Assembly: GCA_009838635.1 (NCBI GenBank)
Contig: VXRE01000002.1
Span: 17,607 to 64,687 of the forward strand
From: Acidimicrobiia bacterium
GTDB lineage: Bacteria > Actinomycetota > Acidimicrobiia > Spongiisociales > Spongiisociaceae
Direction of reading: 5' to 3'
DNA length: 47,081 nucleotides
Shown piece by piece: positions 8,760 to 28,789 of the stretch. Each line of letters begins with the position of its first letter. Positions within the stretch are counted from its first letter, which is position 1. The translations under genes were made by a program, and so were the position numbers. Under the pieces are notes generated by a model, which saw only the letters and a list, made by a program, of their open reading frames with translations, ran no database searches and was not told the origin of the DNA.

Positions 8760-10306
8760 GTTGGACCTCTTGGCTGGTGCCGGTGCTGAGCCTGGCGGGC
8801 ATTGCCGTCGCGGCCGTCAAATGGCTACGTGTGGCTCAGCGGGAGCACTACCTGGCCGGTTCGATCCTCTTCATGCGCCGGGTCTGGATCACCGGCCGGC
8901 CCGTGAACGTCCTCGAGGAGGTGATGCTGGCCGGCGCCCTGGCCGGCTATGCCCTGGCGCCCGATTCGTTCTGGCCCTTGTTGGGCTGCTTGGGGATTGT
9001 GATCTTCCCGATCGGCCTCGGCTACCGCGGCCGGACGTCCCCGCTCAACTGGACCGTCCGGCTCAGGCGCACCGCCTCGGTCGGGGCGATCCTCCTCGCC
9101 CTGGCTACCGCCCTGCTCGGCTGGATGATCACCATCGTGCTCGACGGGGGATGGCCCGGTGCTCTCGCCATGGCCGCCGTCGTCTCGTGGTACGCCATCC
9201 CGGATCTCGGGCTGTGGATAGCCGCACCTGTCGAGAGGCGGCTGTCGGAGAAGTTCGTGGTCCGAGCGGCCGGTACGCTGGACCGGGTGGCTCCGGTAGT
9301 GGTGGGTATCACCGGGAGCTACGGCAAGACCAGCACCAAGTGGTACGTCCGGGACCTCTTGTCCGGAACCAAGCGGGTGGTGGCCAGCCCGGCCAGCTTC
9401 AACAACCGGCTCGGCCTGGCCCGGGCGATCAACGAGACCCTGACCGATGACGCCGAGGTGTTCGTGGCGGAGATGGGCGCCTACCAGCCCGGGGAGATCG
9501 CCGACACCTGCTCCTGGATACCTCCGAGCATCGCCGTCCTGACTGCCATCGGACCGGTTCACCTGCAACGGTTCAAGTCGGAGGAGCGCATCGTCGAGGC
9601 CAAGTCCGAGATCTTCGAGCATGCCGAGGTGGCGATTGTCAACGTGGACCATCCGGCGCTGGCGGACCTGGCCGGGCGCCTGGGTGACCGGAAGGTGTGG
9701 CGATGCGGAACCTCCGAAGGGGCCACGGACGTGCGGGTTCGCCAGGACGGCGACCTCCTGACCATCGTGGTGGACGGCCGGGCGCTCGGCGAGCCGGTCC
9801 CGACCGGCCCGTTTCCCGCCAACCTGGCCTGTGCGGTCGCGGTGGCTCTGGAGATGGGGGTTCCTCCCGCAGTGGTGTCCGATCGGACCCGCCGTCTCGC
9901 CCCCACGGACCACCGCCAGACGACCGGCCGGTCGGAGGCCGGGTTCGAGATCATCGACGACACGTTCAACTCCAATCCCGCCGGCGGCGCCCGGGCCCTC
10001 GAAGTCCTGGCGGGCGCCGGAGATCCGTCCGGCCGCCGGGTGGTGGTGACTCCCGGGATGGTGGAACTCGGCCCCCGGCAGCACGACGCCAACCTGCGGT
10101 TCGCCGCGGCAGCCGCGGAGGTGGCTGATCATCTGGTGATCGTGGGCAGGGCCAACCGTAGGGCACTGCTCCGTGGCGCACGAGGAGGCTCGGTCGAGGT
10201 GATCCTGGTCGACAACAGGGAGCAGGCGGTGGCCTGGGTCCGGGAGCTCCTGGGTCCGGGCGATGCCGTCCTTTACGAGAACGACCTACCCGATCACTAC
10301 CCGTAA
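8756..10306 (+). CDS. murF: MurF-family Mur ligase with N-terminal multi-pass membrane domain
   Basis: GITGSYGKTSTK P-loop, SFNN, AEMGA, IIDDTFNSNP, VVTPGMVELG, terminal ENDLPDHY. The first ~160 aa are hydrophobic helices. Confidence 0.85.
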   Translation: MSWTSWLVPVLSLAGIAVAAVKWLRVAQREHYLAGSILFMRRVWITGRPVNVLEEVMLAGALAGYALAPDSFWPLLGCLGIVIFPIGLGYRGRTSPLNWTVRLRRTASVGAILLALATALLGWMITIVLDGGWPGALAMAAVVSWYAIPDLGLWIAAPVERRLSEKFVVRAAGTLDRVAPVVVGITGSYGKTSTKWYVRDLLSGTKRVVASPASFNNRLGLARAINETLTDDAEVFVAEMGAYQPGEIADTCSWIPPSIAVLTAIGPVHLQRFKSEERIVEAKSEIFEHAEVAIVNVDHPALADLAGRLGDRKVWRCGTSEGATDVRVRQDGDLLTIVVDGRALGEPVPTGPFPANLACAVAVALEMGVPPAVVSDRTRRLAPTDHRQTTGRSEAGFEIIDDTFNSNPAGGARALEVLAGAGDPSGRRVVVTPGMVELGPRQHDANLRFAAAAAEVADHLVIVGRANRRALLRGARGGSVEVILVDNREQAVAWVRELLGPGDAVLYENDLPDHYP

Positions 10307-10465
10307 GGTCTGACTCGGAGTCGTGGCGAGCGGGTGGGATGGGAGTGTCGGTAGGACATCCCCCGGCCCGCATCCGTTCCGGTCCCGATGCTGTTCCTAC
10401 ACGAGGGCCCTAGTACCACCTGCCTGTTTCGGCTCGACGTTTTTTCGCGTTCTCAAGAGTAGGGG

Positions 10466-10493
10466 TTGACTTGTCACAACCCCGATATATGTT
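10466..10493 (+). promoter_or_regulatory. SigA-type promoter for the candidate ncRNA
   Basis: TTGACT (10466-10471), 16-bp spacer, TATGTT (10488-10493). No credible ORF downstream. Confidence 0.6.
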
Positions 10494-10495
10494 GA

Positions 10496-10781
10496 TTAGC
10501 GCCAAGCACCGAGACTGGCCGACAGCACGGAACCGATCGGAACGGTCAGCCGAAGGGAACAGAGCTTCATGGAGCGGAGGCCGATCTCCCGGCAGCCAGC
10601 CGGGCGTGGCCCATCACGCTCCAAACCGGATAGGTGGTGGTGGGGGCGGGCCCTTGGCCGGAGGTCCGGTTTTCGCGACGTTCGCCCTCTAGCGGTTCTT
10701 GAGGCAGAGGGCGTCACGTATGACGTTCTGATCCTCAGGTTCGCCGCCGCTGCCGGTCTCTCGGGTCCTTAGGCGCGCTGA
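10496..10781 (+). ncRNA. Candidate ~285-nt structured ncRNA (Ms1/6S-like architecture, family unassigned)
   Basis: Long-range pairing 10511-19/10752-60, 10530-34/10738-42, 10535-43/10725-33, 10545-48/10721-24. Internal hairpins 10570-76/10617-23, 10624-30/10665-71, 10683-90/10706-13. G-U wobbles fit only the + strand, and a promoter lies upstream. Confidence 0.65.
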
Positions 10782-10839
10782 CAGTTGCGATGTTCTCGAA
10801 GCGTCACCTCGACCACACTGCCGACCAGGGCGTTATGGA

Positions 10840-12369
10840 TCACATCTGGAGGCCGGCGATCAGTTCCTGCTTGAGGCTGGACAGCTCCGGGCTCAGCGAC
10901 ACGTGGTAGGTGTGGGGGTTGACCAGCCGCCGTACTCCGGGATCCAGGCGGGAGAGATCCGCTGACCGTCGTGCTCTTGCGGCTACGAGATCGCCGAAAT
11001 CGCCGGCAACCCGCCGGCCGGCCTTCAGCACCGTCACCCTGAGCGGTTCCACCTCCGAGACCTGCCGGGCGGTCAGGGTCCGACTCACCTCGGGATGGCC
11101 GGGATGGACCAACTGGATGGGCCGGGCGCCCGGATCGAAGCCCTCGAGGGTGATCAGGTCGGCCGTGGCCGTTCCTCGGTGGTTATAGATCCTCCACAGC
11201 CGCTTGCGGCCCGGATCCAGCACCTTGGAGGGCGTCTCCGAGATCTTGATCGCCGCGGTCCACTCGCTGCTCGAGTCCTTGACCGCGACCAGCTTGAAGA
11301 CACCGTTGGGGCTCGGGCAACCGTCCGAGGTGACCAGGCGGGTACCCACTCCGTAGACGAGCCGGTCCAGCAGGCTTCCCGCATCCACCCCGTAGTCACC
11401 GGCCTCCTCCAGGATCTGGTTTCGCACCTGCCAGATGGTGAGCTCGTCCAGATCGGAGGAGAGCACGATCGCCACGTCTTCGAAGCCGGCCCGGTCGAGC
11501 ATGGCTGCGGCCCTGACCGCCAGGTAGGCCAGGTCGCCCGAATCGAGCCGGATCCCCACCGGTCGGTGGCCTCTTCGGCTCAACTCCTCGAATACCTTGA
11601 TGGCGTTTGGCAGGCCCGACTCGAGGGTGTTGATCGTGTCGACGAGGAGCAGGCAGTCATCGGGATACAGGTCGGCATAGGCCCTGAAGGCCTCGAGCTC
11701 GCTCCCCGATTCGGCGATGAACACCTGGACCAGCGAATGGGCATGGGTGCCGCGCGACTCGAAGCCCAGCCGGTGGGAGGTGGCGAAGTTGGAGGATCCC
11801 GCCGCGCCGCCGATGAGAGCCGCCCGGGTGGCCGAATCGGCTGCAGGGCCGGGCGCCCGTCGCATCCCGAATTCCAGCACCGCGGTCCCCCCGGCCGCCT
11901 CCACCGCCCGGGAGGTCTTGGTGGCCACCAGCGTGGCGTAATTGAGCCGGTTCAGCAGGGGGGTCTCAAGCAACTGGGCCACGGCCAACGGCGCCTCGAC
12001 GGTCACGACCGGCGTCTTGGGATGCACCACCCGGCCTTCCGGAATCGCCCACATCGAGAGGGACGCGAACCCGTCCGATCGGGTCAGCCATTCGATGAAG
12101 GGGTCGCCGAAGAGGCGCTTGCCGGAGCTGGTCTGCACTGTGCGCAGGGCGTCAGCCTCCGCGGGCCCGAACCAGGTGTGCTCCATCCAGTCGATCAGCG
12201 GTCCGAGGCCGGCGGTGATGCAGTATCCGGCCTGGTGGTCGCCGTAGTCGGGATAATGCCGGAAGTGGTAGTCGAACTGGGCGGTCCGGTCGGCCAGACC
12301 ATAGCTGTGGTAGAGCTGAGCCATGGTCAGCTGGTAATGATCGGTGGCCAGGATGCCCTCGGTGAGCAC
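10840..12369 (-). CDS. pncB: Nicotinate phosphoribosyltransferase
   Basis: [29 protein letters not shown] (phospho-His), [24 protein letters not shown]. Confidence 0.95.
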
Positions 12370-19273: not shown

Positions 19274-19364
19274 ATGGTTCGCCCGTCAGGACCGGGTGCT
19301 GGCGAGGGCAACAGATCGGGTCCCTGATCGAGTAGGAAACCGAAGAGAACGCGAAAACCTGATA

Positions 19365-19393
19365 TTGAAACTGTAAGAATGTTGTGATATATT
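19365..19393 (+). promoter_or_regulatory. Near-consensus SigA promoter for the small ORF
   Basis: TTGAAA-N17-TATATT, 7 nt before ATG 19401, in an AT-rich patch. Confidence 0.7.
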
Positions 19394-19400
19394 ATCCTAC

Positions 19401-26461: not shown

Positions 26462-28789
26462 GTGACCTGGGAGATCGGGTTCCTGATCCTGCTGCTGGTG
26501 GTGATGGCCTACCTGTTCCTGACCGCCAAGCTTCCGGTGGACCTGACTGCCTTCCTGGGCCTGGCGGTGCTGATCGTCGGAGGCTACGTGGGGCCTACGG
26601 AAGCCTTCAGCGGCTTCGCCTCGCCGGCCGTGATAACAATGCTCGCCATCTTCATCATCAGCGCCGCCCTGCTCTACACGGGGATAGCCGACGTAGTGGC
26701 GTCCAAGGTCTACACCCTGGTGGGCAGCAAGGAGGTCCCGCTGATCATCACCCTCATGCTGGTGTCGGGCATCCTCTCCGCGTTCATGAACAACATCGCC
26801 GCCACCGCGGTCCTGATGCCGGCGGTGGCGGGAATCGCCCGGAGGGCGGGGCTACCGGCTTCGCGCCTGATGATGCCCCTCGCGTTCGGGTCGATCCTGG
26901 GCGGCACGACCACCATGGTGGGCACCCCACCCAACATCGTCGCCGCCACCATCATCGCCGAGCGGGACATGACGCCGTTCGGTCTGTTCGACTTCACTCC
27001 CATCGGGTTGGTGCTCCTCGCCGCCGGAATCCTGTTCATGATCACGGTCGGCCGGCGGCTTCTTCCCGACCGTCAGGTGGGTCCTGCCGAGTCGGAGGCG
27101 GATGAGTTGACCCACATCTACCAACTCGAGGAGCGCCTGTTCACGATCCGCATTCCCGAGCCGTCCGCCATGGACGGCGTCACCCTGTCCGACGCCCACC
27201 TGTCCGGTGCCCTGGGCATCAAGGTGGTAGCCATACACCGGGGCGCCAAGCACCTCTCCCCGACGGCCGACACCCTTCTGAGGGGCGGTGACGTTCTTCT
27301 CGTGGAGGGCAGGCTGTCGGACCTCGAGGACCTGCTGCGGGTCGGGGAAGTGGAACTCCAGCCGACCTCGACCCGCCAACTCCCCAGGCCGAGACGAGGT
27401 TTCACCGCCATCAGGTTCGAGGTTCCCGCCTCGTCGAGCCTGGCGGGAACGAGCCCGCGCGAAGCGCGCTTCAGGGACCGTTACGAGGCGGTGATCGTAG
27501 GCGTGGAGCGGGATGGGGAGGTCATGCGGGAGAACCTGGCTTCCCGGACCATCCACGCCGGGGATCATGTGATCGCTATCGGGCCCCGCTCCCAGCTGCT
27601 GGAGATGCAACCCGACCCGAACTTCCTGGTGAAGGACCTGGGGTTGTCGGCGATGCAGGCCTTCGAGGGCCATCTCTCGGTGCTCCGTGTCCCGGAGGGT
27701 TCCTCGCTGGCGGGATCGACGGTGGGGTCGAGCCGGCTGAGCGAACTGGTGGGAGTCACGGTCGGAGGGATCATCCGTGATGACGTCACCCGTCTCGACG
27801 TGCATCCCGACGACGTGCTCGAGGCCGGCGATGGTTTGCTGGTGGCGTGCGAGCCGGCCCGGTTCGAGAGGTTGGTCCGGCTCGGTGACGTAGAGGTGGA
27901 TTCCCGGGTGGGTGAGGGAGAGCTCGAGTCGGAGAACTTCGGTATCGTCGAGGTGGCGCTGGCGCCTCGCTCGGCGATCGAGGGCAAGACCTCACGCGAG
28001 CTGCAGTTCCGGGATCGCTACGGCCTCCAGTTGCTGGCGGTCTGGAGGGACGGCCGCTCCATCTACGAGGACCTGGCCGATCTGGCGTTCCGCTTCGGTG
28101 ATGGATTGCTGGTGCAGGGTCCTTGGGAGCGGATCAGCCTGCTCGGTTCCGACCCCGACTTCGTGGTGCTCTCACCGGCGGGGATGCGGCCTCGCCGTCC
28201 CAAGAAGGCCCCCATCGCGCTGGGAGCGTTGCTGCTGATGGTCGCGATGGTGGTGCTGGGCATCCAGCCCATCCACGTGGCCGCCTTCATCGCCGCCAGC
28301 CTCGTGTTGCTGTTCGGCACCGTCACCATGGAGGAGGCATACCGGGCCATCGAGTGGCGCACCATCTTCCTGGTGGCGGCGGTCCTGCCGGTGGGGATCG
28401 CCATGGAGAGCACCGGCGCGGCGTTGCTCCTGGTCAGCAGGGCCAGGGAGTGGCTGGGACCGATGGGCCACCTCGCCATCCTCATCGCCCTGGTGGTACT
28501 TGCCAGCCTTCTCAGCCAGGCTCTTGACGGGGCCCCGGCGGTGGTCCTCCTGGCGCCGGTCGCCCTCGAAACGGCTGCTCAGCTGGGCATGAACCCCTAC
28601 GCGGCCATGATGGGGGTGAGCCTGGCCGCGTCGGCCGCCTTCATGACTCCGTTCAGCCACAAGGCCAACCTCCTCGTCATGGGAGCGGGTGGTTACCGGG
28701 CCATCGACTATGCCCGCGTCGGTACTCCGCTGACCGTGGTCGTCCTAGGCATAGTCGTCGCCCTGGTACCGGTCTTCTTCCCCATCTGA
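26462..28789 (+). CDS. SLC13/DASS-family permease with four RCK_C domains
   Basis: FSGFASPA, SAFMNNIA, TMVGTPPN, four RCK_C-like repeats, TPFSHKAN. Confidence 0.9.
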   Translation: MTWEIGFLILLLVVMAYLFLTAKLPVDLTAFLGLAVLIVGGYVGPTEAFSGFASPAVITMLAIFIISAALLYTGIADVVASKVYTLVGSKEVPLIITLMLVSGILSAFMNNIAATAVLMPAVAGIARRAGLPASRLMMPLAFGSILGGTTTMVGTPPNIVAATIIAERDMTPFGLFDFTPIGLVLLAAGILFMITVGRRLLPDRQVGPAESEADELTHIYQLEERLFTIRIPEPSAMDGVTLSDAHLSGALGIKVVAIHRGAKHLSPTADTLLRGGDVLLVEGRLSDLEDLLRVGEVELQPTSTRQLPRPRRGFTAIRFEVPASSSLAGTSPREARFRDRYEAVIVGVERDGEVMRENLASRTIHAGDHVIAIGPRSQLLEMQPDPNFLVKDLGLSAMQAFEGHLSVLRVPEGSSLAGSTVGSSRLSELVGVTVGGIIRDDVTRLDVHPDDVLEAGDGLLVACEPARFERLVRLGDVEVDSRVGEGELESENFGIVEVALAPRSAIEGKTSRELQFRDRYGLQLLAVWRDGRSIYEDLADLAFRFGDGLLVQGPWERISLLGSDPDFVVLSPAGMRPRRPKKAPIALGALLLMVAMVVLGIQPIHVAAFIAASLVLLFGTVTMEEAYRAIEWRTIFLVAAVLPVGIAMESTGAALLLVSRAREWLGPMGHLAILIALVVLASLLSQALDGAPAVVLLAPVALETAAQLGMNPYAAMMGVSLAASAAFMTPFSHKANLLVMGAGGYRAIDYARVGTPLTVVVLGIVVALVPVFFPI

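Follow-up and report, generated by a model that had tools for sequence, protein, structure and literature searches.

A lineage-specific MITE/REP-like element of Spongiisociaceae that probably carries a new family of small-RNA genes

We analysed a stretch of 47,081 nucleotides (the window) from an Acidimicrobiia bacterium of the family Spongiisociaceae (GenBank assembly GCA_009838635.1, contig VXRE01000002.1, positions 17,607–64,687). [quoted passage not shown] The element probably carries a new family of small-RNA genes, whose transcription, ends and function we predict from sequence. We observed directly how many copies there are, how they are built and distributed, that they are conserved at orthologous loci and that their helices are preserved; our confidence in the RNA-gene reading is moderate, part of the covariation behind it being alignment-dependent. 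The original prediction for this gap was right about a promoter and a structured element, but it misplaced the boundaries, proposed a rod that is not conserved and assigned the RNA to the wrong family.

Copy number and architecture of the element

The genome that contains the window (G000) comprises 2.89 Mb in 171 contigs and is 95.75% complete. A BLAST search of this genome with 10440–10800 gives 44 matches on both strands with 69–92% identity. Iterated nhmmer searches give 105 matches, of which 43 are core copies (at least 150 profile positions) and the remainder additional palindromic 3′ modules of about 50 nt. The sequence is thus not the orphan that had been proposed. According to gene calls that are crude and based on third-position GC (GC3), 41 of the 43 cores are clear of predicted genes. 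Several contigs terminate within the repeat, and 43 is a lower bound: a genome-wide scan with the promoter motif described below yields 45 matches, 29 of them inside known cores, and at least seven of the 16 remaining matches resemble further, partial copies situated at contig ends. After two motif matches outside the 43 cores (G000:C104:19554–19600 and G000:C166:3628–3670), the sequence bears a faint resemblance to the RNA 5′ end; these matches may represent very diverged members.

Pairwise identity between the paralogs has a mean of 75.8% and a maximum of 93.5%, and therefore there has been no recent burst of copying. The nearest paralog of the window copy is 74% identical to it.

Boxes, promoter, RNA and hairpin align throughout 28 own-genome copies. 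The element is delimited by the boxes TCGCGAAAA and TTTTCGCGA. The family form of the left box is TTTTTCGCGTTCTC, which is found in about two-thirds of the full copies, and in the window's genus the orientation of this left box is direct, not inverted. The unit in the window spans 10440–10679, with a palindromic tail that reaches 10742. Its left boundary box, TTTTTTCGCGTTCTC, is located at 10440–10454 (plus strand), the point at which paralog similarity begins in about two-thirds of the full copies and at which conservation among the six orthologous loci begins too. The shorter box TTTTCGCG recurs after the terminator hairpin, and the core is thus bracketed by it; in the window it is found at 10442 and 10670 (plus strand), one on each side of the unit. 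TTTTCGCG occurs 79 times in the genome, compared with 6–56 occurrences for eight words of the same composition. Seventy-three of these occurrences are intergenic and 40 are in or beside cores.

The family promoter is composed of a TTGAA-type −35 element, a 17-nt spacer with a near-invariant GTCACA and a TAYGTT −10 element. TANNNT and GTCACA are each present in 25 of the 28 own-genome copies. Consensus scan and family layout place the promoter-like region of the window copy at 10466–10493 on the plus strand, with TTGACT at 10466–10471, the spacer segment TGTCACA at 10472–10478 and TATGTT at 10488–10493. The original claim of a TTGACT-N16-TATGTT promoter here is borne out: it is the sole sigma-70-like site that the consensus scan finds in 10250–10900 (0.0 expected from shuffles).

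The promoter is followed by a segment of about 180 nt that opens with AUCGCCAAGCACC, includes a G-rich tract (GGUGGUGGCGGGGGAGGGCCC) and ends in a terminator-like hairpin with the consensus CCGGUGC-GGA-GCACCGG, then U5. In the window copy, the match to covariance model R1 (see below) predicts an RNA at 10496–10677 on the plus strand, with its start near 10498–10501 and its end at the U-run 10670–10673. The terminator-like hairpin of this copy (10654–10679, plus strand) is degenerate, with CCGG 10658–10661 pairing with CCGG 10666–10669 ahead of the U-run and the right box TTTTCGCGAC (10670–10679). The 3′ end of the RNA is most likely near 10674–10677 and not at 10781; the length is likely to be about 180 nt, shorter than the ∼285 nt first proposed.

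Imperfect REP-like palindromes of about 48 nt, from zero to six units per copy, are joined to the 3′ side of the core. We detected 47 such units in the genome, 38 of them within 450 nt 3′ of a core. The window copy has a single unit (GGTTCTTGAGGCAGAGGGCGTCA...TGACGTTCTGATCCTCAGGTTC, 10694–10742). Tandem Repeats Finder reports nothing on a six-unit array, the units being too diverged. At L006 1760–2050 (on G000:C20), four full units and one partial unit follow the RNA core, separated by variable linkers of 12–22 nt, in an array that Tandem Repeats Finder misses.

Conservation at orthologous loci

The flanking genes, originally named murF and pncB, are indeed a Mur ligase and an NAPRTase gene, and the same pair encloses an orthologous copy in G010 and G001 (∼95% identity over 3.2 kb) and in G003, G009, G002 and G006. 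The window copy is syntenic in six species. Since these orthologs are 83–95% identical, compared with 74% for the nearest paralog, the copies predate the species and were kept.

The conserved block of the six-species alignment opens at TTTCGCGTTCTC (∼10446) and closes at TTTTCGCG (10677). In the rest of the spacer, relatives other than the closest one lack the sequence or cannot be aligned, and the REP-like unit is missing at this locus in G003, G009 and G002. A second set of orthologs, that of the C2 copy, shows the same pattern of conservation.

Predicted RNA structure and helix preservation

RNAalifold analysis of 22 own-genome copies gives four helices and the terminator. The consensus fold is a three-way junction in which P1 joins the 5′ end to the G-rich tract, P2 forms a hairpin and P3 and P4 form a nested hairpin. 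The 5′ strand of P1 (CGCC..CACC) pairs with GGUG..GGCG; in the window, the two strands are located at 10500–10510 (plus strand) and 10633–10642, as given by RNAalifold on both own-genome and cross-genus MAFFT alignments. P2 has the family consensus CCGGCCG/CGGCCGG and is formed in the window (10515–10549, plus strand) by CUGGCCG (10515–10521) and CGGUCAG (10543–10549). Its loop consists of a variable, paralog-specific stretch of about 10 nt beside the self-complementary CCGAUCGG (10533–10540); two copies carry UCGAUCGA in this loop, which is also self-complementary. P3 (GGAGCG/CGCUCC) encloses P4 (CCCGGC/GCCGGG). In the window (10570–10623, plus strand), UGGAGCG (10570–10576) pairs with CGCUCCA (10617–10623) around CCCGGC (10588–10593) and GCCGGG (10599–10604).

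Conservation extends to the joining strands GAGGGAAC and CAGGA(C/U)(A/G). The former is a purine-rich single-stranded joiner that reads GAAGGGAAC in the window (10552–10560, plus strand); its GGGAA is invariant in the 22 own-genome copies and kept across genera. The most conserved segment across genera is the G-rich tract (GGUGGUGGUGGGGGCGGGCCC, 10633–10653, plus strand), which comprises the 3′ strand of P1 and an unpaired G-run.

This fold retains only part of the structure first proposed for the region. One of the three basal hairpins suggested there, UGGAGCG/CGCUCCA, is P3 and thus a conserved family feature. The AACCGGA/UCCGGUU hairpin is not kept in orthologs, and the CGCCCUCU/AGAGGGCG hairpin is situated in a variable stretch just ahead of the repeat unit. 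The helices originally described do occur in the sequence, and the minimum free energy fold of 10496–10781 includes the proposed long rod. This 286-nt segment folds with a z-score of −3.23 (1 of 200 shuffles as good), and the reverse strand of the region folds almost equally well (z = −2.92). The rod is not conserved: it pairs 10512–10545 with 10723–10761, a partner within 10720–10781 made up of REP-like unit and unique flank outside the conserved unit, which is absent or unalignable at the locus in three of the five other species (G003, G009 and G002). Instead of a rod, family members form P1 between the 5′ end and the G-rich tract.

The helices are preserved through changes of sequence. Depending on the lineage, P2 reads CCGGCCG/CGGCCGG, GCCGGG/CCCGGC, CCGGCU/AGCCGG or GCGGUCG/CGACCGC at the same place, and P3 occurs as GGAGC/GCUCC, GGAAC/GUUCC, GGGCC/GGCCC and GGGGC/GCCCC. 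Among the orthologs of the window copy, one P2 pair is G·U, A–U or G–C. We built covariance model R1 from own-genome copies and then gathered members from other species and the second genus, which resulted in an alignment of 60 sequences. In this model-guided alignment, 92.7% of the cells pair and 25 of the 38 pairs change on both sides, in a total of 183 cells. Slid controls give 15–51 such cells; shuffling gives 39.8 ± 5.0, and 183 is not attained in any of 500 shuffles. G·U cells outnumber A·C cells by 102 to 33, which favours the plus strand, that is, the strand of the promoter. In a structure-blind hidden Markov model (HMM) alignment of the same 60 sequences, P3 stands out with 15 both-side changes compared with 4 in slid controls. 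In the cross-genus MAFFT alignment, likewise structure-blind, one P1 pair is GC in 19 sequences, AU in 8, GU in 3 and unpaired in 4.

Distribution among relatives

Twenty-one of the 29 family genomes searched have R1 matches, with at most 92 candidates scored per genome. All 11 genomes of the window's genus (g1) match, with 26–48 matches each (32 in G000), as do all eight genomes of the sister genus g2 (2–17 matches). One of three g5 genomes has four matches, and none of the six genomes of g3, g4, g6 and g7 has any. In an order-level search with stricter filters, 13 of 18 genomes of the family match, compared with none of 132 genomes from 11 other families. Genus g2 and two divergent species, G011 and G004, keep both the promoter layout and the hairpin after the G-tract.

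A search for an exact two-part pattern in one genome per GTDB species returned 69 stretches, all in records of metagenome-assembled genomes with titles that name Candidatus Spongiisocius, Ca. Spongiisociaceae, Acidimicrobiia bacterium, Acidimicrobiaceae bacterium or simply ‘bacterium’; the same pattern has no match in IMG/VR viral contigs. DNA sequencing runs that contain the stretch are labelled mostly as sponge metagenomes, plus two marine metagenomes. Four runs of unrecorded kind (X2, X3, X5 and X12; Logan contigs) contain fragmented contigs and related-strain variants, some of which skip 10308–10460 and ∼10675–10838.

Observations that weigh against an RNA gene

Several results count against the reading of the core as a small-RNA gene. 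Most of the strong covariation signal depends on the model-guided alignment. In the structure-blind HMM alignment, 88.5% of the cells pair and just 43 cells change on both sides (slid controls, 16–38), and P2 is indistinct (19 changes compared with 15–25). Within the own genome alone, 5 of 38 pairs change on both sides, in 7 cells, compared with 2–7 in slid controls, because the stems barely vary there. Cross-genus MAFFT alignment followed by RNAalifold recovers P1 only. An anchored complementarity test, for which 37 of the 60 sequences were anchorable, is weak: P2 scores 6.7 with its own partner and 5.5 across subfamilies, and P3 does not discriminate. Furthermore, the core (10496–10677) folds like dinucleotide shuffles (z = −0.40; matched by 59 of 200), as does the core of a consensus-like copy (z = −0.52). 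The case for structure is therefore made by helices kept through changed sequence and not by folding energy.

The signals for transcription are also imperfect. The −35 element is weak in about half of the copies, with TTGACA matched at four or more of six positions in 13 of 28. The degenerate terminator of the window copy is a derived, weaker version common to its ortholog group, in which the G006 ortholog keeps the canonical hairpin, and the G004 copies have no U-run. Among the 21 listed sequencing runs that contain the stretch, none is on record as RNA.

The element as selfish DNA

An alternative view is that the element is a purely selfish MITE/REP-type repeat, with a promoter and hairpin that are incidental or serve transposition and with no selected RNA function. 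We consider this view unlikely, albeit deserving of serious attention. Like a MITE, the element is short (<500 bp), non-coding and present in dozens of dispersed intergenic copies, and the original prediction had itself named many dispersed copies, of which there are about 43, as the sign of such a repeat. In genus g2, the end boxes are inverted and thus MITE-like, with CGCGAA on the left in 10 of 21 copies and TTCGCG on the right in 18 of 21 (by-eye count of flanks). One G000 copy (C54, L005) has no counterpart at the orthologous site of G002 (C32, L194), where there are only REP-like units; this single case of presence and absence could equally represent an insertion or a deletion. REP-like units joined on the 3′ side and a core that folds no better than shuffles fit the same picture.

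The element is also used as a target by an insertion sequence (IS), which is a trait of selfish DNA. In the complete genome G008, two different paralogs are interrupted by an IS110-family element of about 1.45 kb, whose 408-amino-acid recombinase is encoded on the opposite strand (G008:C1, ∼468.3–470.0 kb, L197 1805–3501; and ∼1556.9–1558.6 kb, L198 1799–3493). Both insertions are at the identical point, GGGGGAG|GGGCCC in the G-rich tract, and part the RNA body from the terminator. Since promoter spacer, P2 loop and terminator are not the same in the two host copies, the G-tract of the RNA is a specific IS110 target, which suggests RNA-guided targeting of the repeat. IS110-family elements are likewise described as targeting REPs in PMC12288879. 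By eye, the ends of the G008 element, the only IS110 member encountered beside a copy, are unlike the boxes of the repeat. We rejected the idea that the repeat RNA is the bridge or seek RNA of an IS110 element: in G008, the recombinase gene runs opposite to the RNA, which is interrupted by the IS and not contained in it, and the copies have no recurrent neighbouring open reading frame (ORF). An omega RNA of IscB or TnpB was rejected as well, given the lack of an Rfam 15 match and of a recurrent neighbouring ORF. Genomes of the family differ greatly in their IS110 load, which does not follow the number of RNA copies; the complete genome G044 (g2) has 51 IS110 DEDD matches, compared with none in G000 and G004 and 8–11 in G007 and G008.

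Other observations are difficult to reconcile with a purely selfish repeat. There are no recent copies, orthologs are conserved from box to box while the adjoining spacer is unalignable, the helices pair through differing sequences among lineages, G·U exceeds A·C, and the positions of promoter and hairpin are kept across two genera. Neither is there a sign of a mobilising partner. The own genome has no match to PF01797 (Y1 transposase; the REP-associated RAYT), a search to which control genomes respond, and none to PF01548 (IS110 DEDD) or PF07282 (TnpB). No autonomous partner with the same ends was found in it through these three families, other transposase families not being searched. G004 has 26 copies of the element yet no IS110 match. 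Copy boundaries show no evident variable direct duplication, and the 169 ORFs within 3 kb of copies include no recurrent neighbour protein, just ordinary paralog families.

Comparison with known repeats and RNAs

Modular dispersed intergenic repeats such as REP/BIME, Correia (NEMIS), ERIC, BOX and RUP contain palindromic units, are often located at gene 3′ ends and serve as IS targets. Some provide promoters or terminators, but most are hairpins of less than 160 bp without a separate promoter-to-terminator RNA gene. In contrast, the element described here has a multi-helix core of about 180 nt with conserved junctions, laid out as an RNA gene from promoter to terminator. Palindrome clusters as in REP/BIME are present in the 3′ module only (47 units, arrays of up to six), and a RAYT match is absent from the own genome.

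Lineage-specific multicopy RNA motifs of unknown function, known from comparative genomics, and the HEARO/IscB omega RNA are structured RNAs of about 150–300 nt with many copies in a narrow lineage. The present family shares the structured RNA, the high copy number per genome and the narrow lineage. It differs in having no Rfam 15 match, no adjacent HNH/IscB-type or other recurrent ORF and no variable 5′ or 3′ guide segment.

The nearest described system that we found is ssr9/MITEPpu9 of Pseudomonas putida KT2440, a small-RNA gene with its own promoter in a MITE-like unit that is mobilised by the IS110-family element ISPpu9 (PMC12288879). According to that report, ssr9 has eight copies and is found in a few strains only, and the boxes at the ends of its unit are copies of the ISPpu9 ones (PMC12288879). 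In both systems, a small-RNA gene (predicted, in the present case) with its own promoter is carried by a short repeat that is non-autonomous, has conserved end boxes and occurs in several unlinked intergenic copies, with REP-type sequences and IS110-family elements nearby. The present element differs in its copy number (about 43 per genome, as opposed to eight), in its age and synteny across species and two genera, in its conserved multi-helix core and in having no visible relation to any IS ends.

Proposed mechanism

In our preferred reading, the core of the element would be a small-RNA gene with a weak −35 element, a GTCACA spacer box, a TAYGTT −10 element, an RNA of about 180 nt and a hairpin with U-run. 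The GTCACA box may be an operator. The element probably spread as non-autonomous MITE-like DNA, and most copies are by now old and held in place. Our working guess is that the RNAs may form a trans-acting or protein-binding family expressed as one regulon.

A more specific version, which is speculative and rather improbable, is a set of about 40 domesticated, co-regulated paralogous RNA genes built on a common scaffold of three-way junction, self-complementary CCGAUCGG loop and G-rich tail, in which the P2-loop segment would be the specificity determinant and GTCACA the operator of a single regulator. The P2-loop segment differs between paralogs and is largely kept between orthologs. In a variant of this version, the RNA would take part in the mobility of its own element.

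The element could instead be a cis-acting module, either a leader or riboswitch of the downstream gene or a terminator or 3′-end stabiliser of the upstream gene. A junction with conserved joining strands and a terminator does resemble an aptamer with its expression platform, 27 of the 43 copies are downstream of a same-strand gene and REP-like hairpins follow the core. Nevertheless, the upstream gene is divergent in the other 16 copies and the element has its own conserved promoter. Of the 26 copies whose two neighbours are on the contig, 20 face a convergent downstream gene and six are followed by a co-directional one (crude GC3-based calls), which leaves usually nothing to regulate in cis. 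This arrangement argues against a leader or riboswitch role and fits an independent unit that is tolerated at gene 3′ ends. We therefore regard a cis-acting role as quite unlikely.

An RNA polymerase-binding RNA of the Ms1/6S type, the identity originally favoured, is very improbable. The element does share with these RNAs a similar order of size (about 180 nt, compared with about 185 nt for 6S), a stand-alone promoter and the lack of coding potential. In contrast, it has about 43 copies per genome, its consensus is a three-way junction and not a rod with a bubble, and no covariance model of such an RNA matches it. A cmscan of 10300–10860 against Rfam 15 at E ≤ 10 gives only a chance match to CRISPR-DR56 (E = 1.7), the entire window has no match at the gathering score and 18 other family members (paralogs and relatives) have none at E ≤ 1. 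No feature of the region calls for the short Ms1-like motifs, noted at the outset, as an explanation. The canonical 6S RNA (RF00013) has no match in the own genome, within its stated completeness; this fits the point, made at the outset, that many actinobacteria lack it, but it does not support a role in RNA polymerase binding. The original alternative of a new class of non-coding RNA fares better, given a promoter and hairpin shared across two genera, preserved helices and a locus conserved in six species, albeit for a multicopy RNA of altered form.

Finally, a small protein encoded by the ORFs of 67–73 amino acids, or by a short ORF after GAGGGAA ... AUG, can practically be dismissed. The Shine–Dalgarno-like GAGGGAA does precede a conserved AUG/GUG at the start of P3 by 10–17 nt, but single-base indels put the conserved nucleotide blocks into nine different frame combinations across 22 paralogs, one copy has ACG in the start position, another has an in-frame stop and the three ORFs of the gap have no Pfam match, in keeping with the initial judgement that the gap holds no credible ORF.

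Significance

If its transcription is confirmed, the element carries a previously undescribed structured RNA family; we found neither an Rfam 15 match nor, in a full-text literature search, a paper that describes it. Every genome of an uncultured sponge-symbiont genus would then have 26–48 promoter-equipped RNA genes, with individual copies locus-stable across species. The element would be a clear example of the MITE-like spread of an RNA gene followed by its retention, and would offer an entry to the RNA biology of an unculturable symbiont group. Should the domesticated-set version hold, it would represent a multigene RNA system of a new kind, peculiar to sponge symbionts. For these genomes, the element is a practical marker as well as a source of assembly breaks, and the G008 insertions at one fixed RNA position provide a natural, sequence-defined target for studies of bridge-RNA-type recombinases.

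Matches in and near the window

The window contains a single copy of the element, with an R1 score of 153.6 bits at 10496–10674. The runner-up (26796–26855, plus strand; 15.2 bits, E = 0.017) has large deletions across the model and is probably a chance match. A lone GGTTTTCGCGTTCTC box without an RNA core is located at 19343–19357 on the minus strand, where it is preceded on that strand by an unusually AT-rich stretch (∼19358–19400). On the same contig, about 2 kb before the first base of the window, there is a second RNA core (G000:C96:15456–15676), which R1 scores at 166 bits.

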